Assembly: GCA_964551605.1 (NCBI GenBank)
Contig: CAZKCV010000006.1
Span: 70-64,069, forward strand
DNA: 64,000 nucleotides
DNA from: an uncultured Gammaproteobacteria bacterium
Lineage (GTDB): Bacteria > Patescibacteriota > Microgenomatia > Daviesbacterales > UBA10151
Reading direction: 5' to 3'
The notes beneath the pieces were generated by a model, which was not told the origin of the DNA, searched no databases, and saw only the letters and a program-made list of their open reading frames with translations. The translations under genes were made by a program, and so were the position numbers. Below are positions 1-9,087 of this stretch, one piece after another; position 1 is the first letter of the stretch; the number at the start of each line of letters is the position of its first letter.

Positions 1-5
1 CCCCT

Positions 6-236
6 ATGGATGAAAAGGAACACAAAAAAGCCCAATTTAATAAAATTTACGCTAACATCCCATTGGGTCTAAGAGATGAAATTGTGGTTGTATTGGAAAA
101 CAACGAACCATTATCCTGGAATGCTGCCAAAATAGAGATTGATAATGATACAGATAAGGTAGATGAAATCTTAGACAAACTTAATCGGCTAGGTTTGTTA
201 AAAGAGCATTCGGAAGACCAACATGGACACGAATAA
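6..236 (+). CDS. hypothetical small acidic protein
   Basis: 76-aa ORF, no recognisable motif; overlaps next ORF by 14 nt. Confidence 0.3.
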   Translation: MDEKEHKKAQFNKIYANIPLGLRDEIVVVLENNEPLSWNAAKIEIDNDTDKVDEILDKLNRLGLLKEHSEDQHGHE

Positions 237-456
237 GGAAGACAAAAAGCTTCAGGAATACATTAAAGAGCTGGTGATAGCCAGAATTAACGCTCTCTCT
301 AAAGATTTGGAGATTTCAGTCGGTGGTGAAAATATTACCAGAGAGCAGATTGTAGAAAGCGTTAAAGAAGGTAATGAACTTGGCCAAGAGATCATTGAAA
401 TGCAGTTAAAATTCCTAAGAGATATTGCTAGAGGTAAAATCTACCAGAGTGAATAA
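223..456 (+). CDS. hypothetical protein
   Basis: 77-aa ORF, charged/helical, no motif. Confidence 0.3.
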   Translation: MDTNKEDKKLQEYIKELVIARINALSKDLEISVGGENITREQIVESVKEGNELGQEIIEMQLKFLRDIARGKIYQSE

Positions 457-1102
457 TTCCATCCTCATCACCAGACCTAATCATGATTTCCCTACCACTT
501 ACCTCTACTTCTGGAGTGAGTTGGTAATAGATGAGGCAAAAAACAAAGGGATCACAGTATTGGATTTAGAGGGTAAGAAAGCCAGCAAGCAAAAATTTGT
601 TAGTTATATCAGCAGAAACAATCCTCACCTAATTTTTCTAAATGGTCATGGATCAAAAGACTCTGTGGCAGGATATGATAATGAGGTATTGCTTGATGAG
701 GATAACTGCGAAGCGCTGCTTAGAGAAAAAATAATTTATGCTAGGAGTTGTGAGGCAGGGGCAAAATTAGGTCCATTTAGCATAGAAAAAGGCGCAGCTG
801 CTTTTATTGGTTACAATAAAGACTTCTGGTTAATCCGCTCAAAAGAACGGGGTACTAAACCATTAACTGATCCAATTGCTAAACTCTTTTTAGAGCCATC
901 AAATCTGGTACCTATTACCTTAATCAAGGGAAATAGTACCCAGGAGGCATATCAAAAATCCCAAGAGAATATGAGAAGAAACTTTAGTTACATGATTTCC
1001 AGTAAATCTTCCCTAGAAGAACGAGATGCTGCCTTTTTTCTTTTTTCCAATTATACTTGCCAAGTGATATTGGGAGATAAGCAAGCTTGTTTAAATAAAT
1101 AA
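425..1102 (+). CDS. caspase-fold (clan CD-like) cysteine peptidase-like protein
   Basis: Candidate His/Cys dyad: 'LNGHGSKDS' ... 'ARSCEAG' about 35 aa apart, as in gingipain/clostripain/caspase-type peptidases. The true start may be the in-frame GTG at 449. Confidence 0.35.
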   Translation: MLEVKSTRVNNSILITRPNHDFPTTYLYFWSELVIDEAKNKGITVLDLEGKKASKQKFVSYISRNNPHLIFLNGHGSKDSVAGYDNEVLLDEDNCEALLREKIIYARSCEAGAKLGPFSIEKGAAAFIGYNKDFWLIRSKERGTKPLTDPIAKLFLEPSNLVPITLIKGNSTQEAYQKSQENMRRNFSYMISSKSSLEERDAAFFLFSNYTCQVILGDKQACLNK

Positions 1103-1131
1103 ACCCCATGTAACTAGTGAGACATTTTGAT

Positions 1132-1677
1132 TTACGCTACTTGTTGCCTGCTAAGTTTTTCTTTATTATGCAGTAACAAACTTTGTTTGTATTTGGCTGT
1201 TAAGGTCTCAAGCTGCATAAGAAGCTCCTCGTTGCTCACTCCCTCATACCGGTCCTTTACAGTGACTTCATGACTCCCGATCTCTGTTGGTAAGCCTAGC
1301 TCTATCCTTTGAATTTCCCAGGCTTTCTCAAAATCAGCCATAGTAATCTCACCCTGGGGGTTTTCCCTTAGCTGCTGTCCAAACTTAATCATGATTGCCC
1401 GGGTGATTGTTAAAATTTCCATCTTGGATATTGCCAACTGTTCGATAGCTTTTTTGACTGCCTCTTCTTTTGCCGCCTGATGGATTGCCTGGGATCTTTC
1501 AACCCACTGGTATTTTGCAGACCAGCTTTTTAACGTTTTAAACGATGGCTTTTTGAATTTTAGCCCATATTCGGCCCATGTTTGGTGCAATTTTTGGATG
1601 GAAGGAGCAGGCATGCTGCTGTATGCCAAAAGTGCCTGATGCTGCATTATATTTTCTCTAGCCGGTTTATCGCTCAT
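1132..1677 (-). CDS. hypothetical protein
   Basis: 181-aa ORF, helical, no clear motif. Confidence 0.4.
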   Translation of the reverse strand: MSDKPARENIMQHQALLAYSSMPAPSIQKLHQTWAEYGLKFKKPSFKTLKSWSAKYQWVERSQAIHQAAKEEAVKKAIEQLAISKMEILTITRAIMIKFGQQLRENPQGEITMADFEKAWEIQRIELGLPTEIGSHEVTVKDRYEGVSNEELLMQLETLTAKYKQSLLLHNKEKLSRQQVA

Positions 1678-1785
1678 ACTGCTACTAGTCCTGGTTGCAA
1701 AATTTGTTGCATATACTTGTAGCTATAATCAAGTGGCTGATATGGTATAGTCCACTCATAGGTTCTGAATGTATTAAGCAAAGCC

Positions 1786-1875
1786 AACCGACCAAAGGGA
1801 GGTTAAAGGGCCAAACTTGTTTAGCCCGGCAACCGACCAAAGGGAGGTTAAAGGGCCAAACTTGTTTAGCCCGGC
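1786..1875. repeat. perfect 45-bp tandem direct repeat x2 (AACCGACCAAAGGGAGGTTAAAGGGCCAAACTTGTTTAGCCCGGC)
   Basis: Read directly: 1786-1830 equals 1831-1875. Intergenic between the glycoside hydrolase 3' end and the 181-aa gene start. Confidence 0.85.
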
Positions 1876-1908
1876 AACACGAGTAAAATTTTCCTAAAAA
1901 GAGTAGGT

Positions 1909-1929
1909 GCCAAGCTAGTCCACCTGGAA
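1909..1929 (-). terminator. REP-like hairpin immediately downstream of the glycoside hydrolase gene (terminator-like)
   Basis: CCACC-TGGAA-GGTGG inverted repeat 8 nt after the stop codon (minus strand). The T-run is weak. Confidence 0.3.
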
Positions 1930-1936
1930 GGTGGGC

Positions 1937-3127
1937 TTAATTCATATCAAGTACCAGTCCACCCCAGGTAAAATTTTGTGCCCCCAGACCCTCCCCTGTT
2001 TGCGGATTGAAATATTCCCGAAACCCTGATTTTTGAATTAAATTAATGGAGGTTTCCTTAATTTGTGCCGCAATATCACCAAAATCATAATTTAATAATC
2101 CTTTGTAGATAAGCCAATTAACTGCTATCCAGGTTGGCCCCCGCCAAAACCCTTTTGGGTTAAATGCAGGTTCGTCTATTGAAACAGTGGGGACCGGAAA
2201 TTTTGTCCAGAACTCTTTTTTGTTTAATAAGTGTTCAACTATTAATTTCTTTGCTTCTTCTTGGTTTAAGATTTCGGCAAATAAGGGCGTAAAGATAGCC
2301 CAGGTTTTTACTTTTATTTTTTGGTAGCCATTCCCGTAAGTTGAATAAAAAATGTCATCTTCCAGCATAAATTTCCTCATGGCTATGGAGATATTTCCTG
2401 CTTGTTTCATAAAGTAGACGGCATCTTCCTTATTCCCCAACCGTTCGGCAATTTGGGCAAGCAACTTTAGATTCGCTACCATAATGGCATTAAACGGTAC
2501 ATCTTTAACCCAGAAAAAATTCCTCATGCAGAAAGGTGCGTCAAATTTGCATTTAATATTTTGATTAACAAGCTCAAGACGTCTCTTAAGATTCTGATCT
2601 AATGTTTGTTTAGGAGGTAAGTCCAGAGGTGGATCAAAACGGGGTGAGTTATCTTCCCCTGACTCATCGGGATTCATAATTCCTATCAAATGTTTTTCGT
2701 GGGGATCCCTTTCATTGAGTAAATATTTGTAGAAGTGGTAAAGGGGGGCATAGGTTTGCATAAGGAAGTTGATATCCTTATCTTTTTTAAAAATCTGCCA
2801 CACTGCATAGGCCAGCATGGGTGGTTGGGTAATGGTGCTTGTTTTGTCTTTTCCCCATTTAATGGTAGGAAAAGCTACTTTCTTATTATTCTCCCAATAA
2901 ATCATGTGCGGAATCATGCCGTTTTGGAACTGTTTTGACAGCAGGGCCAAAATTTCCTTTTTTGCGTCTTCTGCTTTGAAATGGGATAGGATGATGGCAT
3001 GAAAACAGGAATCCCAAAGCCATTGGTAAGGGTAGGTATCAGGGGAAGGGACCGTATATTGCAGACCTGATGCCCGGCGGCGGTTTTGTTTCATCAGCTG
3101 GAGGCAGGTACTTGCGGTGCTGGCCAT
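1937..3127 (-). CDS. (alpha/alpha)6-barrel glycoside hydrolase (GH63/GH15/GDE_C-like; possible trehalase/alpha-glucosidase)
   Basis: 'YPYQWLWDSCFHA' N-terminal motif typical of the MGH/GDE_C-type toroid hydrolases. Overlaps otsB by 4 nt, so likely the same operon. Confidence 0.55.
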   Translation of the reverse strand: MASTASTCLQLMKQNRRRASGLQYTVPSPDTYPYQWLWDSCFHAIILSHFKAEDAKKEILALLSKQFQNGMIPHMIYWENNKKVAFPTIKWGKDKTSTITQPPMLAYAVWQIFKKDKDINFLMQTYAPLYHFYKYLLNERDPHEKHLIGIMNPDESGEDNSPRFDPPLDLPPKQTLDQNLKRRLELVNQNIKCKFDAPFCMRNFFWVKDVPFNAIMVANLKLLAQIAERLGNKEDAVYFMKQAGNISIAMRKFMLEDDIFYSTYGNGYQKIKVKTWAIFTPLFAEILNQEEAKKLIVEHLLNKKEFWTKFPVPTVSIDEPAFNPKGFWRGPTWIAVNWLIYKGLLNYDFGDIAAQIKETSINLIQKSGFREYFNPQTGEGLGAQNFTWGGLVLDMN

Positions 3128-3134
3128 AAATATA

Positions 3135-3923
3135 CTATACCAAAACTTTAAGTTTATTTAAGAAGAAAATGACATCTTCCGGATCTTTTAAGTAATACTT
3201 TGCTTTTGATTGGCGCTTCCTGCCTACGGTTATGGTAATTTCTTTATTCAATTTTTGAAAAGTATCCTCGTCAGTCTTGTCGTCGCCGATAACAATAGCC
3301 ACAGGTTTTTTCTTGGTCAGGGCGGCAATTTTCTTCATAACCATATCTGCAAAATAGCCCTTATTCCAAGCAGCTTTGGGAAGTATCTCCAGCACTTTTT
3401 TTCCTAAAATTGTAGAAACTAACCCCTGTTTTTTAATATTCTTTAATATTTTTTTAAGTGATAGTTTAAGTTGCGGGATTCGCTGTTTGTCTACTGCCCT
3501 AAAGTGAAATGCCAGCATTATTTTTTTATCTTCAATAAATGCCCCGTTAAATTGGTCAGTCACTTCCTGCAGTTGTTCCTTTATCTTTCTGATGGCTATT
3601 AAGCCGCTCTTTTTTACAGGAAAAATATATTGTTTATGCTGGATTTCTCCTTTGAAGCCGTGTTTACTGGCATAGATTATATCCGGTATCCCGACCCTTT
3701 GTTCCAGATCATTCAACTGCCTGCCGCTTACGACCGCTACATAAAAGTTGGGTTTTTGACAAAGGCTTTGTAATAATCTTTGGGTTCCTTTTGAAATGTT
3801 TGCCAGTTTTGGTGATTTGACGATGGGTGTGAGTGTGCCGTCAAAATCAAGGAACAAAACTTTCGGACAATCCTTCTTCAGCAAGAGGGTGATTTCATCA
3901 AGATCCTGCCATAAGTATTTCAT
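3135..3923 (-). CDS. otsB: trehalose-6-phosphate phosphatase (HAD-IIB)
   Basis: 'FLDFDGTLTPIV' HAD motif I, 'VVSGR' motif II and a C-terminal 'IGDDKTDED' motif. Confidence 0.75.
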   Translation of the reverse strand: MKYLWQDLDEITLLLKKDCPKVLFLDFDGTLTPIVKSPKLANISKGTQRLLQSLCQKPNFYVAVVSGRQLNDLEQRVGIPDIIYASKHGFKGEIQHKQYIFPVKKSGLIAIRKIKEQLQEVTDQFNGAFIEDKKIMLAFHFRAVDKQRIPQLKLSLKKILKNIKKQGLVSTILGKKVLEILPKAAWNKGYFADMVMKKIAALTKKKPVAIVIGDDKTDEDTFQKLNKEITITVGRKRQSKAKYYLKDPEDVIFFLNKLKVLV

Positions 3924-6160
3924 CCCAGTCCCACCATTGTTTTTAGAAGTTCCGCTGACCAGCGGTAAACATTATTATTTTTGATTATTTCCCGCATATC
4001 CTGCATTCTCTTTGCTTGTTCCTTGGGTGGCATTTCCAGGGCTTCCCTGATTGCATCAGCAGTCTGTTCGCCGTTGTATGGGTTGACAATAAGGGCATCT
4101 TTAAGTTCTCTTGAGGCACCGGTATACTGGCTGAGTATTAAGACACCTTTATAGTCATCTCTTGCTGCTACATACTCCTTTGCCACTAAGTTCATCCCGT
4201 CATGCAATGATGTGATTAGACAAAAATCAGCTACCCGATAGAACTTTTGAAGTTCGGTGTGGTTATGGTGTTTTTTAAGAAATATAATCGGCTTCCACTT
4301 ACCCTTCTTAAACTGTGAGTTAATGCGTTCAACTTCTTTTTCAACTGCTTCAGCAAACTCGCTCATTTTCTTAATTTTACTTCTTGAGGGAGGAGCAATC
4401 TGGATAAAGGTAAAATTTGATTGATATTGGGGGTTTTCAGTCAGGAAAATTTCAATGGCCTTTAACCGTTCCAGAATGCCTTTAATGTAATCAAGCCTGT
4501 CAACTCCCAGCCCGATATATTTTGTTTTTATCCCCAGATTCTTAACCAGTGCATGGGATTCTTTTCTGTTATTTTCTATGGTTTGTTTATCCAGGCCATT
4601 ACCATTTGAAAAAGCAATACTGATGGGAAAAGGTTTAACAAACGATTTATGGTTATTTCTGGTAATGGCAAATTGCTCAAAATCTATTAATGACTCCAAT
4701 TCCCTGCCTACTGTTTCAATGAAATTATTGCAGTAAAGTTGAGTATGGAAACCGACTAAGTCGGCACCTAATATTCCTTCCAGGACTTCTCTTTTCCATG
4801 GACAAATACTAAAGGATTCCGGATTAGGCCAGGGAATATGCCAAAAAAGCCCGATAACCGCACTGGGCTTTTGCATTTTTACCATCCTTGGGACCAGGGC
4901 AAGTTGGTAATCCTGGATTAAAACAATTGGCCTTTCCTGTTTCCTGATCTCCGCCAGGATTGTTTTTGCAAATTTTTCATTTACTTTATAATACTGTTCC
5001 CAATCTTCTTTTCTAAAAGTCGGGCGGTTATGGGCATTATGGCAAAGCGGCCACAACCCCTCGTTAGAGAATCCAAAATAATATCCTGCCTCTTCTTCTT
5101 CGGTCAACCAAATCCGTTTGAGGGTGTATTTTGGTTCGTCAGGCGGAACTTTTAGCCTATTGTTTTTATCCACTACTAACTTATCCGCATCCCCGCTCCC
5201 GTTAGCTATCCACATGCCTCCGCATGCCTGCATTACAGGTTCGATTGCTGTGACAGGCCCGCTTGCCGGCATATAATAAGTGATCTTACCGTTGCTTTTT
5301 GTATGGATATAAGGTTCCCTGTTTGAAACCATAAAGATAGTCCTGCCCTTTAAAATGTCTTTGATAAATTCCTTCAGTCTTTCTGCTGTCCATGGAGAGT
5401 TAACTTCTTCAAGCCGGAGCCTGGCTTCTTCACTGGCTGTTGATCGTGCTTCCTGTAAGCTCCTTCTGATATTGGTAATTTCATTTACCAGAGGGCGGAA
5501 AAACAATGAATTAACGGGTCTTCTGGAATCCGGTTCCCGTTCTCCTGATCTTGCTACCTTAAGTGATTCAACGAGGCTTTTTATTGGTGTATAGATAAGC
5601 CATTTTATTAAAAGAAGGGTGGCCAGGGATAATAAAGAGGCCTGGATAAAGAGTCTGAATAAGTTGTTTTTCCAGATGTCTTCTATTCTGGTATTAATAT
5701 ATTCGGCATTTTGAGCAATCATTAATGCCCCAACTACACTTTCTTTGTCATGAAGAGGGGTTGCCAGCAAATATATTTTATTATTATTAAGCTCAATAAA
5801 ATCACCTGTAGCCTGGTCCAGGTCCATGGCGTCCGCGGCGGTTTGTTTTGCCTTAGGAATTTCTGAAGTCAGACTTGAAGAAGTAGCAACCGGGTTTGCC
5901 TTATTATCATAAATGTTCATCCCCACCAGTCTTTCTTTGTTTTCGAATCTATTTACCATAGATTGCAGTTGCTGGTCTGATTTATTGATAAAATTTGGTT
6001 CAACAGCCTCTTTTAAGCTTTCGGCCAGCAGGGTGGAACGAAATTCCAGATCACTCTTGAGCCTTTGTTCTTCCCGATAAACCTGGGAGGCAGTGAAAGC
6101 GACTACAATAAGAGTTATAATTACTACAATTACAGAGACCGCAATCAATAACTGTTTCAT
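3920..6160 (-). CDS. otsA: membrane-anchored sensor domain fused to trehalose-6-phosphate synthase (GT20)
   Basis: The N-terminus has TM1, a roughly 150-aa extracytoplasmic domain, TM2 and a linker. The GT20 core follows, with 'LFWHIPWPNPE' and 'HDGMNLVAKEY' signatures. Confidence 0.75.
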   Translation of the reverse strand: MKQLLIAVSVIVVIITLIVVAFTASQVYREEQRLKSDLEFRSTLLAESLKEAVEPNFINKSDQQLQSMVNRFENKERLVGMNIYDNKANPVATSSSLTSEIPKAKQTAADAMDLDQATGDFIELNNNKIYLLATPLHDKESVVGALMIAQNAEYINTRIEDIWKNNLFRLFIQASLLSLATLLLIKWLIYTPIKSLVESLKVARSGEREPDSRRPVNSLFFRPLVNEITNIRRSLQEARSTASEEARLRLEEVNSPWTAERLKEFIKDILKGRTIFMVSNREPYIHTKSNGKITYYMPASGPVTAIEPVMQACGGMWIANGSGDADKLVVDKNNRLKVPPDEPKYTLKRIWLTEEEEAGYYFGFSNEGLWPLCHNAHNRPTFRKEDWEQYYKVNEKFAKTILAEIRKQERPIVLIQDYQLALVPRMVKMQKPSAVIGLFWHIPWPNPESFSICPWKREVLEGILGADLVGFHTQLYCNNFIETVGRELESLIDFEQFAITRNNHKSFVKPFPISIAFSNGNGLDKQTIENNRKESHALVKNLGIKTKYIGLGVDRLDYIKGILERLKAIEIFLTENPQYQSNFTFIQIAPPSRSKIKKMSEFAEAVEKEVERINSQFKKGKWKPIIFLKKHHNHTELQKFYRVADFCLITSLHDGMNLVAKEYVAARDDYKGVLILSQYTGASRELKDALIVNPYNGEQTADAIREALEMPPKEQAKRMQDMREIIKNNNVYRWSAELLKTMVGLG

Positions 6161-6201
6161 TCAATGTATTATACAGGAAAAAGATAAGACTGTAATCCGT
6201 G

Positions 6202-6786
6202 CTAGTTTGACTGATGCTTCGGAGGGTTTTGTAATGAATCTTTTTTGTTCTCTTTTGCTTCTTCTTTATTTTGTGCAGCCGGATTATCAGGAATCTGATT
6301 TTGGTTTTCCTTTTGCTTGCTGACTGATTCAATTGCCTGCTCTAAGCCTTTTATTGCCTGTTCAGGGGCTTTTTCTATGACCTTTTGTAAAACATTAATT
6401 GCTTTTGTTTTATCTTTTTGTAATCTTTCCTGCTCATTTTGTCTCCGTTTTTTAATTTCCGAGTTAATATAGATTTTTAGTTCAGGAGGTGTAATAGTTA
6501 AAACTGCTTCTTCACTTGCAGTTTTAATTTGATATAGCGGGTCTCCGGGTAAACTGTATTGAGCGGCATAAACTACCCCGATGCCCGGTAAGACAAGAAA
6601 TAAAAGCATTAAAAAGGCAAACCGATATAGAAATGGATGGTTTTCTTGTATTTTGGGACCGGAAATTTTGTTAAGAAGGCGCATCCTGGCGTTTTTTCTA
6701 AAAACCGGGTCAGGATTTATACTTTCTAAGTTTCTTAATTCCCTTAAAAATCGTTTTATATTATTATCTTTCATTTTTTTAATCAT
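6202..6786 (-). CDS. single-pass membrane protein, putative anti-sigma factor (DUF5667-like)
   Basis: Directly downstream of, and overlapping, the ECF sigma gene. It has one TM helix and a charged coiled C-terminus, paralogous in architecture to 30542..31177. Confidence 0.45.
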   Translation of the reverse strand: MIKKMKDNNIKRFLRELRNLESINPDPVFRKNARMRLLNKISGPKIQENHPFLYRFAFLMLLFLVLPGIGVVYAAQYSLPGDPLYQIKTASEEAVLTITPPELKIYINSEIKKRRQNEQERLQKDKTKAINVLQKVIEKAPEQAIKGLEQAIESVSKQKENQNQIPDNPAAQNKEEAKENKKDSLQNPPKHQSN

Positions 6787-7195
6787 TTTCTAATAACCGC
6801 CTTAATTTTTTTAGTGCCCTGTTTTGTAAAACCCTGACATGGCTAACCGGCTTTTGTAGGATGGTACTGACTTCTTCATTAGTTTTTTCCTCTACAAATT
6901 TCAGGATGATAATTTCCTTATAGGCATCAGATAGTTTTTCCAGCGCCCTTAAAGCAGCTTCGTAAGTTAACTTAAGTTCAGTATAGTCCAGCGGAGATAA
7001 ATTGTTATCTTCTAACTCCGTTATGGCTTCAAGTTGAACATATTTTTTTTGAGTCCGATAATAGTCTATTACCGAATTTCGGGCTATGCGGAATAGCCAT
7101 GCTTCAAAGGGTGCTCCTTCATCCTGAAATCCATTCAGCCCTTCCCAGGCCTTTAAGAATATATTTTCCGTTAAATCTTCCGCCTCCTCCTTCAT
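6779..7195 (-). CDS. ECF-type sigma-70 factor (ATG-defined ORF; homology continues to 7321)
   Basis: Region 2 'FEAWLFRIARNSVIDYYR' and region 4 'VRVLQNRALKKLRRLL'. The upstream in-frame codons encode a sigma region 2.1-like sequence. Confidence 0.7.
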   Translation of the reverse strand: MKEEAEDLTENIFLKAWEGLNGFQDEGAPFEAWLFRIARNSVIDYYRTQKKYVQLEAITELEDNNLSPLDYTELKLTYEAALRALEKLSDAYKEIIILKFVEEKTNEEVSTILQKPVSHVRVLQNRALKKLRRLLEND

Positions 7196-7394
7196 ACCTA
7201 CTCTAAAATAAACAAAACGGTAGATTTTCCCCAGTAATAAGTCATAAATTTTTCCATATGCTTCCCCGCTCCCTTCCCGAGCTTTCCTGACCAGTAATTT
7301 TAGGCTTTCTTTCGTAGTGTATTAATTATAACGAAAGATTGGAAAATGTGTAACATGTTATGTTCTTAAGTTATTTTCGTTTTACTTATTAGAG

Positions 7395-7586
7395 ATGGAT
7401 ATGCAAAGAAGTGCAAATAATTTACAAGTCAGTAATGCTATCGAATTTTGGGGATTATTTTGTTTCGTTTGTGACAAAGATTTTATCCTAAAAAGGAAGC
7501 TTTTTCAGGGCAAGCGGGATATGAAATGCCCCCGGTGCCACACAAAAGAGGCTGTGATTACCAATGTTTCAGATCAGGTCAGGTAG
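7395..7586 (+). CDS. possible small zinc-ribbon protein
   Basis: CxxC...CxxC ('FCFVCDKDF...KCPRCH'); weak RBS. Confidence 0.25.
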   Translation: MDMQRSANNLQVSNAIEFWGLFCFVCDKDFILKRKLFQGKRDMKCPRCHTKEAVITNVSDQVR

Positions 7587-7783
7587 ATTATGAAGTTACA
7601 CAACTTAAGATCGAGGTCTTGACAAAGTTTTCAAAAGTGCATATCGTAGGAATTGTCCGGCCGATGCATAGGTTTGGGGCTTAATGCCAGAAAGCCAGGT
7701 TTCTAGAGACCGGCCCAATGACAGGATAAAAGTTAGTTGTGTGTGGTTCTAAGAAGTGCAGATGGAAACATTAGTGCTTCGAC

Positions 7784-7815
7784 AAAAAAATCTGTCCACA
7801 AGGCAGATTTTTTTG
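7784..7815 (+). terminator. intrinsic terminator (A7-hairpin-T7, bidirectional)
   Basis: ATCTG-TCCACAAGG-CAGAT stem flanked by an A-run and a T-run, 6 nt upstream of the SGNH hydrolase ATG. Confidence 0.45.
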
Positions 7816-7820
7816 ATTAT

Positions 7821-8645
7821 ATGAAAAGATTTCTGATATTACTTGGTTTAATTTTAATTATTATTGTTCCCTTTTTCATTCTGACTAATCTGATACTTAA
7901 AAATCTGGAAAGGAAAGCTGAGCAGAAGGTTGAAAAGAAGCCTCTGGTTAATATCCGGGAAGATAACAGGACTAAAGTTAAATACCCTGATGATTTTACT
8001 ATTGTGCTGGTTGGTGATTCAATGACTGAACGCTTAGGCAATTCGGATGAGATACGGGCCAACTTAAAAAAATATTATCCGGGGAAATCAATTGAGGTAC
8101 TAAACTATGGTTTTGGTTCCACTAATATTTTATCAGTAGAAAAAAGACTGACGGAAAAGTCTTTTTATACCCGGGAATTCCGGCCGATTTTAGATATTGC
8201 TTTTGATGTATTAATCCTGGAATCTTTTGGTAATAATCCCCTTTCGCAGTTTCCTTTGGAGGACGGCTTAAAAAAGCAAACTCAAGCTTTGGACCGGATT
8301 GTGGATTTGATCAGAAAGGGAAATCCCGGCTCAAAATTAGTTTTTCTGGCCACCATTGCCCCTGATAAATTTAACTTTGGCAAGGGGGTGCTGGATTTAT
8401 CGGATAAGGAACGGGAAAAATGGGCTTTAGAAAGAACGGAATATATTAAAAATCATATAAATTATGCCAAATCCCACAATATCCCGCTGATTAATGCTTA
8501 TGAAAATTCCTTGACAAAAGACGGCAGCGGCCGGGCAGATTTTCTTTCCAAAGACGATTATATCCATCCTTCCCCGAAAGGGGTGATCTTTATTTCGGAA
8601 CAGATAGCAACCTCGCTTTATGAATTTAGGATATTAGAGCAATAG
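7821..8645 (+). CDS. SGNH/GDSL-family hydrolase
   Basis: 'IVLVGDSMTERLG' GDS(L) block after an N-terminal TM anchor. Start moved to the ATG at 7821 (MKRFLILLG...). Confidence 0.65.
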   Translation: MKRFLILLGLILIIIVPFFILTNLILKNLERKAEQKVEKKPLVNIREDNRTKVKYPDDFTIVLVGDSMTERLGNSDEIRANLKKYYPGKSIEVLNYGFGSTNILSVEKRLTEKSFYTREFRPILDIAFDVLILESFGNNPLSQFPLEDGLKKQTQALDRIVDLIRKGNPGSKLVFLATIAPDKFNFGKGVLDLSDKEREKWALERTEYIKNHINYAKSHNIPLINAYENSLTKDGSGRADFLSKDDYIHPSPKGVIFISEQIATSLYEFRILEQ

Positions 8646-8646
8646 A

Positions 8647-9087
8647 CTATTTACTTTTTCTTGTTTTTTGGGCCAGGCTGATGTTGTGCATATAAGCCCT
8701 TTGTTGTTCTTCGGTTGGCTTTTTTCTTTCAGGGATACCGGGCCGATCCGTTGCCTCGAAGATATCGCCTTTGATATGAGTTGGGACAGAGCCCAGGTTT
8801 TCTATTACCTCCCTGGCATCATCCGTATCAGGCACCAGTTCATCTTCTTCTATATGGGCTGATTTTTTGTTGATCATCCAGGTTTGGGTATCCCAGTTGC
8901 CATTTTTGCGTATGCCGGCCAGCCGTATTACATCTCCGCCTTTTTCGCCAACATCATGATACCTGAAGGCAATAAATTCTTCCTTGGGGTGGACCACAAT
9001 CCGGTACCACTCCCCTTCCCCGACTGCTCCGGGTTTTTCCCTAATATTTTTTTTAGCACCGCTTGCCATATCTGTATTTCCTAACAA
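8647..9087 (-). CDS. hypothetical protein
   Basis: 146-aa ORF, no motif recognised. Confidence 0.35.
   Translation of the reverse strand: MLGNTDMASGAKKNIREKPGAVGEGEWYRIVVHPKEEFIAFRYHDVGEKGGDVIRLAGIRKNGNWDTQTWMINKKSAHIEEDELVPDTDDAREVIENLGSVPTHIKGDIFEATDRPGIPERKKPTEEQQRAYMHNISLAQKTRKSK

Follow-up and report, generated by a model that had tools for sequence, protein, structure and literature searches.

On the minus strand of the analysed window, a stretch of 64,000 nucleotides, a single open reading frame of 746 amino acids (3920..6160) joins an input module of the sensor-kinase type to a trehalose-6-phosphate (T6P) synthase domain of family GT20 (Pfam, E 1e-121). The polypeptide starts with a short cytoplasmic N-terminal tail and a first transmembrane helix (TM1). 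Next come an extracytoplasmic domain of the single Cache type, similar to that of WalK, and TM2; two helices that resemble HAMP and a highly conserved helical linker, constant in length, then lead into GT20. HisKA and HATPase domains were absent in the domain searches, which leaves GT20 as the sole output. We estimate a probability of roughly 55% that the protein is a dimeric receptor-enzyme, in which an extracytoplasmic signal gates T6P synthesis. This reading is based on the architecture and fold, the alignment to WalK, the HAMP signature residues, the invariant linker length, the intact OtsA catalytic set, the adjacent otsB, the near-exclusive pairing of the sensor module with GT20, and the compatible-solute-type clusters around the gene in Acidobacteriota. 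Counted against it were the missing Pfam HAMP match, the sub-threshold Pfam Cache matches, the weakly conserved Cache core and a GT-B active site that lies wholly within one monomer. If true, compatible-solute synthesis would be controlled without transcription. No published description of a membrane sensor-GT20 fusion was found. The original prediction of a sensor wired onto a T6P synthase thus holds for the input module and the intact GT20 domain, while sensing and regulation are what we infer from them.

The original prediction had also raised the possibility that a frameshift created the join. That such an error, or a faulty assembly, united two genes has a negligible probability and is refuted by the uninterrupted frame of 746 codons and by hundreds of independent full-length orthologues from differing assemblies and phyla; nothing was found in its favour. 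More than 120 clusters of orthologues of 740-746 amino acids were recovered, and full-length copies are present at 80 genome loci. The full-length orthologues are 44-79% identical and occur in Daviesbacteria, other Patescibacteria, many Acidobacteriota, Elusimicrobia, Nitrospirae, Bacteroidetes and others. The search for the TM-x-TM-GT20 arrangement in other genomes, as proposed earlier, hence returned it from many phyla: the fusion is widespread, and neither rare nor special to the source genome. This wide spread suggests that cells can place the production of trehalose, a stress sugar, under direct control from the outside. Among the 51 sensor-module matches that reached past the linker, at least 43 continued into GT20 and one into GCS2, and a kinase followed in no case; judged by these best matches the module appears to be coupled almost exclusively to GT20.

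The predicted succession of TM1, a non-cytoplasmic domain of ~150 residues, TM2, a linker and GT20 was borne out by hydrophobicity, Pfam and models alike (with an outside domain of ~140 residues), and the quoted motifs LFWHIPWPNPE and HDGMNLVAKEY were both found. Hydrophobic segments occupy residues 4-24 (TM1, 6089..6151) and 167-189 (TM2, 5594..5662). In Kyte-Doolittle windows of 19 residues TM1 peaks at 3.37, and in the models an unbroken helix spans residues 2-58. TM2 reaches 2.0 in this protein, with a mean of 2.55 for the best window over 67 orthologues. The 15 residues C-terminal to TM2 are net positive in the same orthologues (K+R 3.1 versus D+E 0.5), and because of this excess an N-in/C-in topology fits, which would place residues 25-166 outside the cell.

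These residues (5663..6088) comprise a stalk helix and a PAS-like single Cache domain that was modelled with a pLDDT of 83. Foldseek related the region to the extracellular domain of Staphylococcus aureus WalK (4ywz/7dud/5is1; E 2e-8 to 5e-8, TMt 0.70-0.78), with E 2e-8, TMt 0.78 and rmsd 2.7 Å for 4ywz, and the family profile matched WalK extracellular domain sequences with E 3e-4. The resemblance extends to the order and size of the complete N-terminal input module of WalK (YycG), i.e. TM1, a single extracytoplasmic Cache domain, TM2 and HAMP. The NCBIfam model HK_WalK aligns residues 2-251 to WalK positions 8-261 (E 1e-9), and in Foldseek the entire module aligns over 267 columns to a WalK model, with 9a5d_A among the matches. 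Modelling of the N-terminal domain, which had been suggested earlier, thus yielded a module that superposes on the TM-Cache-TM-HAMP input of WalK. The N-terminal 250 residues are therefore supported as a genuine sensor-kinase-type input module. Unlike WalK, the fusion protein lacks the PAS/DHp/HATPase kinase core and the phospho-accepting His box, its output is a glycosyltransferase, and sequence identity is only about 14-17%. YycH/YycI-type partners of WalK were not seen with the fusion gene.

Part of the evidence fits a membrane tether, possible though rather improbable, in which the N-terminal module merely dimerises and localises T6P/trehalose synthesis to the cytoplasmic membrane face without perceiving a signal, possibly to protect the membrane or to supply a glycolipid pathway or an exporter. 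Of the structured parts of the protein, the Cache core is conserved least (majority-residue frequency 0.48, versus 0.75 in GT20) and shows no family-wide conserved polar pocket in the alignment of 67 orthologues, so that no ligand can be proposed; moreover, the Pfam Cache_WalK and sCache_3_2 matches stayed under threshold. A plain anchor, however, requires neither a folded outside domain of 140 residues nor a HAMP-like segment, and the module in its entirety matches the input part of a true sensor kinase.

The HAMP-like helix-connector-helix (residues 190-238, 5447..5593) was delineated from models, conservation and profiles. The modelled helices run up to residue 205 and again from 219/222, with a low-confidence connector in between, and P192, G206 and E227 are conserved in 100%, 91% and 100% of the 67 orthologues, which were drawn from several phyla. 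The HMM check of the N-terminus that had been called for gave a mixed outcome: Pfam HAMP did not match the protein even at E<=10, a point that also favours a tether, whereas weak profile matches were obtained at the exact position for the HAMP domain of Af1503 (E 0.03-0.06) and for TM2+HAMP of Tsr (E 0.02), next to the WalK match. The linker (residues 239-275, 5336..5446), defined by alignment conservation, completes the 275-residue N-terminal addition. It is laid out as a helix (...EEARLR...), a turn (S-P-W-T) and a second helix (AERLKEF...), with A242, E245, A246, W257, T258 and L262 invariant, and 22 residues separate WT..RL from SNREPY in 65 of the 66 sequences in which this was counted. 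That the P/G/E signature and the linker register are held across phyla, at an N-terminal identity of just 26-62%, argues against a mere tether. On the other side, we know of no characterised precedent for a dimeric HAMP that regulates a single-chain GT-B active site.

Canonical OtsA is a soluble cytoplasmic enzyme. The GT20 domain of the fusion (residues 276-746, 3923..5335) matches the Pfam model over residues 276-741 with 407 bits, and resembles OtsA/Tps1 of Escherichia coli (1GZ5/1UQU), Mycobacterium thermoresistibile (5JIJ/5L3K) and Candida albicans (5HUT) in its GT-B fold (TMt 0.87-0.91; 0.91 for M. thermoresistibile OtsA), in sequence (E around 1e-80) and in having a T6P phosphatase adjacent. 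All donor-, acceptor- and catalytic-site positions of E. coli OtsA that were checked are invariant, which supports a catalytically intact domain as far as sequence can tell. The Arg in the SNREPY strand corresponds to Arg9 of E. coli OtsA, which ligates the phosphate group of glucose-6-phosphate. It differs from the known, soluble enzymes by the added membrane module, and the solved structures cover the GT20 part at most (TMq <= 0.58). The best-scoring NCBIfam model was PRK14501 (492 bits), which describes bifunctional TPS-TPP fusions. In these GT20 has likewise been elaborated by gene fusion, but their extra domain is a C-terminal phosphatase, whereas here OtsB is encoded by a gene of its own and the added module sits in the membrane at the N-terminus.

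The protein stays under the NCBIfam equivalog cut-offs of both OtsA (436.7 versus 564.85 bits) and GgpS (297.6 versus 569 bits), which leaves some room, albeit little, for a different product such as glucosylglycerol phosphate, a glycoside that the neighbouring hydrolase would then degrade. OtsA models nevertheless score far higher than GgpS, and the checked residues that bind glucose-6-phosphate and UDP-glucose are all conserved. In addition, the partner gene otsB (3135..3923, 262 amino acids) encodes an HAD-IIB phosphatase, as originally predicted, which matches Pfam Trehalose_PPase (E 1e-45) and passes the T6P phosphatase equivalog cut-off of TIGR00685 (153 versus 68 bits). It lies downstream of the fusion gene on the same strand, overlaps it by 4 nt (ATGA) and is translationally coupled to it. 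The second 4-nt overlap that had been claimed, between otsB and the hydrolase gene further downstream, is in fact a gap of 7 nt from the otsB stop to the hydrolase ATG.

The hydrolase (1937..3127, 396 amino acids; PF22422, E 1e-79) has the predicted (alpha/alpha)6 fold and is of the GH63-clan (MGH1-like) type. Its family has been characterised on mannosylglycerate and glucosylglycerate (Tt8MGH, TTHA0978; Mycobacterium hassiacum GgH, PMC6608630), which would suit a different GT20 product, and TTHA0978/Tt8MGH is the closest solved relative (E 1.5e-54). Like these enzymes it retains the catalytic pair (D159 and E371, equivalent to Asp182/Glu419) and the -1 sugar subsite (Y32, W36, W38, D39, Q101, G157 and W328). 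The glycerate-binding residues, by contrast, are changed (Tyr88->Ala85, Trp177->Asp154, Tyr222->Leu180, Tyr375->Phe327), the position of Arg216 falls within a deleted cap segment of 13 residues, and identical glycerate-site changes occur in the neighbour hydrolases of Daviesbacteria and Saccharibacteria. The NCBIfam GgH score is 181.6 versus a cut-off of 550. Considering the loss of the glycerate-binding residues, the enzyme is probably not a glucosylglycerate hydrolase, one of the two activities suggested earlier; the other, trehalase, is a guess from gene context. The hydrolase gene is also missing from most of the 80 fusion-gene loci, which likewise speaks against a different product.

As a receptor-enzyme, the fusion protein would be a homodimer that perceives a signal outside the cell or in the membrane, plausibly osmotic or ionic conditions, desiccation or the state of the envelope, and passes it via TM2 and the HAMP-like bundle to the rigid linker. 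The SNREPY Arg would ligate the phosphate group of glucose-6-phosphate, and since the linker ends 22 residues before this strand, the signal could turn on or off the binding of the acceptor or the closing of both GT-B lobes. OtsB would then free trehalose, and in Daviesbacteria the neighbouring hydrolase would probably remove the disaccharide, or a related alpha-glucoside, once unneeded. The structure models are of the monomer. An outside sensor, two transmembrane helices and HAMP joined to a catalytic domain are also found in HAMP-coupled receptor-enzymes such as the diguanylate cyclase YfiN/DgcN, the N-terminus of which gave a weak NCBIfam match (E 0.002); mycobacterial HAMP-adenylyl cyclases, e.g. 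Rv3645, are further examples. Those enzymes produce second messengers and need dimerisation of the catalytic domains, whereas the output here is a primary-metabolic GT-B enzyme with its active site in one chain. In the fold and profile searches, a LapD orthologue (4u64) gave one of the weaker matches with its periplasmic output domain. This would suit inside-out signalling as in LapD, in which GT20 would report the cytoplasmic status of sugar nucleotides, glucose-6-phosphate or T6P and the outside domain would be the output, for example by binding a periplasmic partner. We consider this very improbable: the intact catalytic residues and the coupled otsB argue for a working enzyme, and no conserved partner gene adjoined the fusion across the loci examined.

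Immediately upstream on the same strand, as originally noted, lie genes for an ECF sigma factor (6779..7195; domain matches), the frame of which stays open upstream as far as 7321 with no canonical start codon, and for a transmembrane protein with an extracytoplasmic DUF5667 domain (6202..6786; E 1e-7), a putative anti-sigma factor by position only. They overlap by 8 nt, and a gap of 41 nt without a detected terminator-like site separates the DUF5667 gene from the fusion gene. This arrangement could mean that the pair is the real sensor and drives transcription of otsA, otsB and the hydrolase gene, with a secondary role for the N-terminal module, but there is little chance of this. The pair adjoins the fusion gene at none of ~90 related loci, including those of Daviesbacteria orthologues with 77-79% identity, and directly before otsA there is a sigma-70-like promoter match (ATTACA-17-TATAAT, 6168..6196) that ends 7 nt ahead of the ATG; with 10/12 positions it is a consensus match only, in a region not clearly enriched over shuffles. 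The regulatory tie implied earlier is therefore unsupported, and the pair probably stands outside the fusion system. In Acidobacteriota the fusion gene shares clusters of the compatible-solute type with OtsB, DUF5752 and a TreT-like glycosyltransferase, and at one of these loci an MGS-like glycosyltransferase and a gene with a weak match to a mechanosensitive-channel domain are found nearby.

The minus-strand ORF at 3920-6160 encodes a protein of 746 amino acids in which an N-terminal membrane module is joined to a GT20 domain (Pfam, residues 276-741, E 1e-121). With the full-length protein as query, more than 120 clusters of 740-746 amino acids were recovered, 66-79% identical and labelled Daviesbacteria, Curtissbacteria, Levybacteria or 'Patescibacteria group'; the named ones among the closest full-length orthologues, at 67-79% identity, were mostly from Candidatus Daviesbacteria, and on this basis the window probably stems from a Daviesbacteria-like patescibacterium. 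A scan of GTDB species genomes yielded at least 443 tblastn-confirmed loci. Among the best 80 of these, which represent at least 80 species genomes and around ten differently named lineages, the sensor region was covered in all 80, and the fusion is full length wherever the contig permits, at 44-70% identity to the window protein. According to the record titles, the same best 80 of at least 443 comprise Patescibacteria (Daviesbacteria, Levyibacteriota, Saccharibacteria) and many Acidobacteriota/Terriglobia, together with Elusimicrobia, Omnitrophota, Nitrospirae, Bacteroidetes (Chitinophagaceae, Puia), Syntrophus, Thermodesulfobacteriota, Gemmatimonadetes and Planctomycetales. The family is very abundant in soil metagenomes as well, as found in a search with an Acidobacteria-type member. 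The fusion that was originally predicted from this one sequence therefore recurs across many phyla. The suspicion that a frameshift had joined two separate ORFs, and with it any artefactual origin of the fusion, is ruled out by hundreds of full-length orthologues, so that we attach practically no weight to it. Two contigs labelled 'uncultured Gammaproteobacteria' (loci L009 and L010) carry fusion genes that are 58-59% identical to the window protein, closer than every other non-Patescibacteria-labelled locus among the best 80 of at least 443; the label may stem from mis-binning or a recent transfer.

Among its best matches the membrane module is found almost exclusively in this combination. 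An exhaustive HMMER search restricted to residues 1-272 retrieved 635 cluster representatives at E<=1e-3, 289 of them at E<=1e-10. Fifty-one of the best 150 matches extend past the linker, and at least 43 of these 51 continue into GT20; the remainder are frameshifted fragments, with a single exception, and none of the 51 contains a kinase domain. Neither the window protein nor any of 34 long relatives gave a match to HisKA/DHp or HATPase_c, and the absence of these domains rules out that the protein is a histidine kinase. The exception, homolog P0225 (690 aa), has the same TM-Cache-TM-HAMP-like module, which continues after a Pro-rich stretch into a GCS2 carboxylate-amine ligase domain where the others have GT20. 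Because it carries this module ahead of GCS2, the protein is a hint that the module may serve metabolic enzymes as a portable input, although P0225 is a single sequence and possibly an assembly chimera. Another homolog, P0165 (913 aa), has two tandem extracytoplasmic sensor domains ahead of TM2.

The proposed order of TM1, extracytoplasmic domain and TM2 is recovered from hydrophobicity, charge and structure models alike. Hydrophobic segments are present at residues 4-24 and 167-189. Within 67 orthologues the N-terminal tail of around 4 residues holds one Lys/Arg and the 15 residues past TM2 hold 3.1 Lys+Arg versus 0.5 Asp+Glu. Given the positive charge after TM2 and the fact that the substrates of GT20 are cytoplasmic, which requires the same orientation, the sequence agrees with an N-in/C-in topology that places residues 25-166 outside the cell. 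AlphaFold models of residues 1-272 (63-sequence alignment, mean pLDDT 83) and of the full-length protein (pLDDT 85) agree in layout. They predict a continuous helix formed by TM1 and a stalk (residues 2-58), an alpha/beta PAS-like core (62-151) and a second continuous helix (153-205) that includes a membrane-proximal helix, TM2 and the first cytoplasmic helix. Then follow a connector of low confidence, a second helix from 219/222 to around 250, a short turn, a helix at 259-270 and the first GT20 strand at 275-281.

The N-terminal model has WalK as its top Foldseek match in the PDB. The integrative full-length WalK model (9a5d_A) was aligned over 267 columns (E 2e-10, TMq 0.63), and crystals of the extracellular domain of S. 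aureus WalK (4ywz, 7dud, 5is1) matched with TMt 0.70-0.78 and rmsd 2.7-4.2 A, the best being 4ywz (probability 1.0, E 2e-8, TMt 0.78, rmsd 2.7 A). KinD, dCache chemoreceptor domains and other histidine-kinase sensor domains ranked below WalK. In NCBIfam, residues 2-251 align to WalK positions 8-261 (E 1e-9), and a profile of 16 diverse family members matched WalK extracellular-domain sequences with E 3e-4. The predicted long N-terminal helix and PAS-like core between two TM helices, together with the structural match, thus correspond to a Cache-type fold, and modelling of the N-terminal domain bore out an extracytoplasmic domain of the sensor type in the form of a WalK-like Cache. The profile searches proposed alongside it gave a mixed outcome: GT20 scored above its gathering threshold, HAMP gave no match and Cache remained below threshold, with 15.9 and 14.9 bits against the Pfam Cache_WalK and sCache cut-offs of 27 and 28.4, respectively. 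Precomputed matches to PF17203, PF23846 or PF02743 are present on some of the orthologues.

Among the structured parts of the protein, conservation is lowest in the Cache core, where the majority frequency is 0.48 versus 0.75 for GT20. Positions that are conserved in the core throughout the family hold hydrophobic residues, Gly or Pro, and no conserved polar pocket was seen in the core across the family. Given this weak conservation and the nature of the conserved positions, a physical cue, a protein partner or lineage-specific ligands would fit the sequences better as input than one universal small molecule. An acidic loop in the outside domain, A-M-D-x-D-x-x-x-G-D-F (residues 111-121, window ~5798-5830), is nearly invariant in the Patescibacteria orthologues, but not in those of Acidobacteriota. 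One speculation is that the loop forms a binding site particular to this lineage, perhaps for a cation.

The catalytic part scores 407.3 bits against the Pfam Glyco_transf_20 model (gathering score 32.5). Its closest solved sequences are Tps1 of Candida albicans and OtsA of M. thermoresistibile (E ~1e-80), to which the model aligned with TMt 0.87-0.91 in Foldseek; the GT-B fold is that of 5l3k/5jio (TMt 0.91, rmsd 3.0 A). Beyond GT20 the protein is not covered by any PDB chain (TMq <= 0.58). When the fusion protein was aligned with E. coli OtsA (from NC_000913) and six fusion orthologues, the ligand-binding and catalytic positions R10, G23, Y77, W86, D131, H155, R263, K268, R301, D362 and E370 (numbering including Met) were invariant. 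The NCBIfam OtsA equivalog TIGR02400 was the best single-function model, with 436.7 bits versus a cut-off of 564.85, and the model for GgpS, the glucosylglycerol-phosphate synthase, scored 297.6; both equivalog cut-offs remained unreached. Considering the invariant positions and the higher score of the OtsA models, the domain is most probably an active T6P synthase, and a product other than T6P, which would leave room for the missed cut-offs, seems improbable.

The segment that connects TM2 to this domain was examined for a signal relay. Pfam HAMP (PF00672) gave no match in the TM2-to-linker segments of six family members, even at E<=10. Direct Pfam detection thus failed, and the case for a HAMP-like segment comes from the conserved motif, the models and weak profile matches. 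In the models, around 50 residues directly after TM2 are laid out like the helix, connector of roughly 14 residues and helix of a HAMP domain, with a helix to 205, the low-confidence connector and a helix from 219/222. Of the HAMP signature residues, within the 67 orthologues, which come from many phyla, P192 at the start of the first helix and E227 in the second helix are 100% conserved, and G206 at the start of the connector 91%. The family profile matched the whole HAMP domain of Af1503 (E 0.03-0.06, positions 188-237 versus 4-54) and TM2 plus HAMP of Tsr (E 0.02, 161-235 versus 192-264), both matches being weak yet position-exact. At least one orthologue, P0343, is named 'trehalose-6-phosphate synthase/HAMP domain-containing protein' by the JGI pipeline. 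On these grounds we refer to the segment as a putative HAMP-like relay.

Relay and enzyme are joined by a stretch that is more conserved than any other non-catalytic part of the protein, AR.AA.EEARLR....S.WT.ERL...(22 aa)...VSNREPY.H., in which A238, A242, E245, A246, W257, T258 and L262 are invariant. In 65 of 66 sequences, 22 residues separate WT..RL from SNREPY, while the N-terminal regions are just 26-62% identical. The Arg of SNREPY aligns with Arg9 of E. coli OtsA (R10 counting Met), which in OtsA structures binds the phosphate of glucose-6-phosphate. The rigidity of the linker and its fixed register to the acceptor-binding strand suggest a signalling wire as opposed to a flexible tether. 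A module that serves purely as membrane tether or dimerisation device is the most serious alternative, if an unlikely one, as a flexible tether would not predict such a rigid, register-conserved connection. Inside-out signalling as in LapD would use the module in the reverse direction, and we regard it as very improbable.

Our preferred reading, to which we assign a probability of around 0.55, is that the protein is a dimeric receptor-enzyme in which a signal from outside or from the membrane switches T6P synthesis. The signal would pass via TM2 to the HAMP-like bundle and the rigid linker, and from there to the acceptor-binding N-lobe of GT20; OtsB would then finish the synthesis of trehalose and, in Daviesbacteria, the GH63-clan enzyme encoded next to it would supply turnover. 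The broader claim, a widespread and undescribed class of receptor-glycosyltransferases in which an extracytoplasmic Cache and a HAMP-like relay directly gate trehalose-6-phosphate synthase, we put forward more tentatively, at slightly less than even odds. Each part is known by itself: OtsA of family GT20, the Cache input of WalK type and the HAMP-like relay. The logic of a sensor-TM-HAMP unit fused to an enzyme is also familiar from cyclases and kinases, although in the fusion the output is a primary-metabolic GT-B glycosyltransferase, the active site of which is independent of dimerisation. No description of a sensor-GT20 fusion was found in the full-text literature, as judged by title and abstract in a search that had most subscription journals outside its scope. 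Nearly all named orthologues are labelled plain 'trehalose-6-phosphate synthase', and the feature is therefore hidden in public annotation.

In model bacteria trehalose is made by a soluble enzyme, and its synthesis is described as transcriptionally controlled. With a receptor-enzyme, conditions outside the cell would act directly and post-translationally on compatible-solute production, so that slow-growing soil and groundwater bacteria could turn on a stress protectant without transcription. If true, a GT-B biosynthetic enzyme would for the first time be placed under HAMP-type signalling, and a metabolic glycosyltransferase would join kinases, chemoreceptors and second-messenger enzymes among the outputs of HAMP and Cache domains. 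The hosts, soil Acidobacteriota and reduced-genome Patescibacteria, are ecologically dominant and poorly studied groups. Mechanistically, the puzzle would be how a dimeric four-helix relay controls an active site inside one GT-B chain, and the invariant 22-residue spacing between linker and G6P-binding-Arg strand offers a concrete handle on it.

Two genes follow the fusion gene on the minus strand. The adjacent otsB (3135-3923, minus strand, 262 aa; Pfam Trehalose_PPase, E 1e-45) encodes a product that clears the NCBIfam T6PP equivalog cut-off (153 versus 68 bits), and it is followed by a hydrolase gene (1937-3127, minus strand, 396 aa; Pfam MGH1-like_GH PF22422, E 1e-79, 268.9 bits). Of the two 4-nt overlaps that were predicted, the one between the fusion gene and otsB (ATGA) is present, whereas a 7-nt gap lies between the stop codon of otsB and the ATG of the hydrolase gene. 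The G+C content is 36-45% throughout, without a compositional break, and no paralogues of GT20, sensor, otsB or hydrolase were found elsewhere in the window. OtsB is encoded directly after the fusion gene in all annotated loci inspected, in both Patescibacteria and Acidobacteriota. By tblastn it was detected in around half of the best 80 of at least 443 loci, an underestimate because acidobacterial OtsB is very divergent. In the Logan assemblies L088-L090 (orthologue P0040, 77% identical) the next gene encodes a Trehalose_PPase protein of 563 aa (7199-8890 in L088), around 300 aa longer than the OtsB of the window, with the extra part unannotated and a 43-nt overlap with the end of the fusion gene. 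On the Acidobacteriota chromosomes L092 and L093 the gene order is fusion, OtsB, DUF5752 and a TreT-like GT (PF21269), and directly upstream in L092 are an MGS_GT-type glycosyltransferase and a small protein that weakly matches a mechanosensitive-channel N-terminal domain. This cluster suggests a compatible-solute setting, as part of a multi-solute osmoadaptation island.

Within the loci inspected, the hydrolase gene adjoins the fusion only in Daviesbacteria (L005, L006, L007, L091) and one Saccharibacteria locus (L013); it was not found at the Curtissbacteria loci or at any other of the best 80 of at least 443 scan loci, all Acidobacteriota included. Its closest solved relatives are TTHA0978 of Thermus thermophilus (Tt8MGH, E 1.5e-54) and the glucosylglycerate hydrolase of M. 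hassiacum (MhGgH, E ~1e-27). In MhGgH, Asp182 and Glu419 are catalytic and Tyr88, Arg216, Tyr222 and Tyr375, plus Trp177, bind glycerate (PMC6608630). When these roles were mapped via HMMER alignments, the catalytic pair (D159 and E371, respectively) and the -1 sugar subsite (Y32, W36, W38, D39, Q101, G157, W328) proved to be retained. The glycerate-holding residues are lost: Tyr88, Trp177, Tyr222 and Tyr375 are replaced by A85, D154, L180 and F327, and Arg216 belongs to a stretch of 13 cap residues missing from the enzyme. The neighbouring hydrolases of Daviesbacteria and Saccharibacteria share both the motif NPDESGEDNSPRFD and the shortened cap. Given this pattern of retention and loss, the sequence identifies the enzyme as a GH63-clan alpha-glycosidase with a different aglycone site. 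The predicted (alpha/alpha)6 family with its catalytic Asp/Glu was thereby confirmed, but activity on glucosylglycerate or mannosylglycerate is disfavoured; the NCBIfam GgH cut-off was missed as well (181.6 versus 550). A sub-dominant Pfam Trehalase match (E 5e-10) reflects clan-level similarity, and on the basis of gene context trehalose is a reasonable candidate substrate.

Upstream of the fusion gene, a sigma-70-like match (ATTACA-17-TATAAT, 6196-6168, minus strand), consensus-level only, ends 7 nt ahead of the ATG, and no Shine-Dalgarno-like sequence is visible in 6161-6196 (minus strand). Considering both observations, the fusion transcript might be leaderless. The hydrolase ATG is likewise without an obvious ribosome-binding site. 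As predicted, an ECF sigma gene (6779-7195) and the gene of a 194-aa membrane protein with a DUF5667 domain, the putative anti-sigma factor (6202-6786, 8-nt overlap with the sigma gene), lie immediately upstream on the same minus strand. The adjacency is not conserved, however: the pair is absent from the ~5-7 kb flanks per side in around 90 related loci, those of 77-79% identical orthologues included. Since the gene order is not conserved and a sigma-70-like match precedes the fusion gene, we conclude that the pair is a chance neighbour; a functional tie to the fusion finds no support in gene order, and control of the system by the pair is highly unlikely despite their proximity.

The sigma gene itself may have an irregular start. 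The frame is open for a further 42 codons upstream of the ATG at 7195 (7196-7321, minus strand), and what they encode resembles the beginning of sigma region 2 that the listed ORF lacks (...LLVRKAREGSGEAYGKIYDLLLGKIYRFVYFRVG-M...). ATG, GTG and TTG are absent from these codons, a CTG being present at 7294-7292, and the NCBIfam ECF models begin matching only ~20-70 positions in (~35 for the best, TIGR02952). Taken together, the region-2-like codons without a standard start and the late onset of the matches indicate that the gene probably uses a non-canonical start. A promoter-like match with a TATAAT box ending at 7325 abuts the stop codon ahead of the open frame. An Rfam scan of window positions 1-9000 gave no match. 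On the other side of the locus, the ORFs at 425-1102 (plus strand, 225 aa) and 1132-1677 (minus strand, 181 aa) are without a Pfam match at E<=0.01, and the intergenic region just 3' of the hydrolase gene contains a perfect 45-bp tandem duplication (1785-1878, 2.1 copies, 100% identity).
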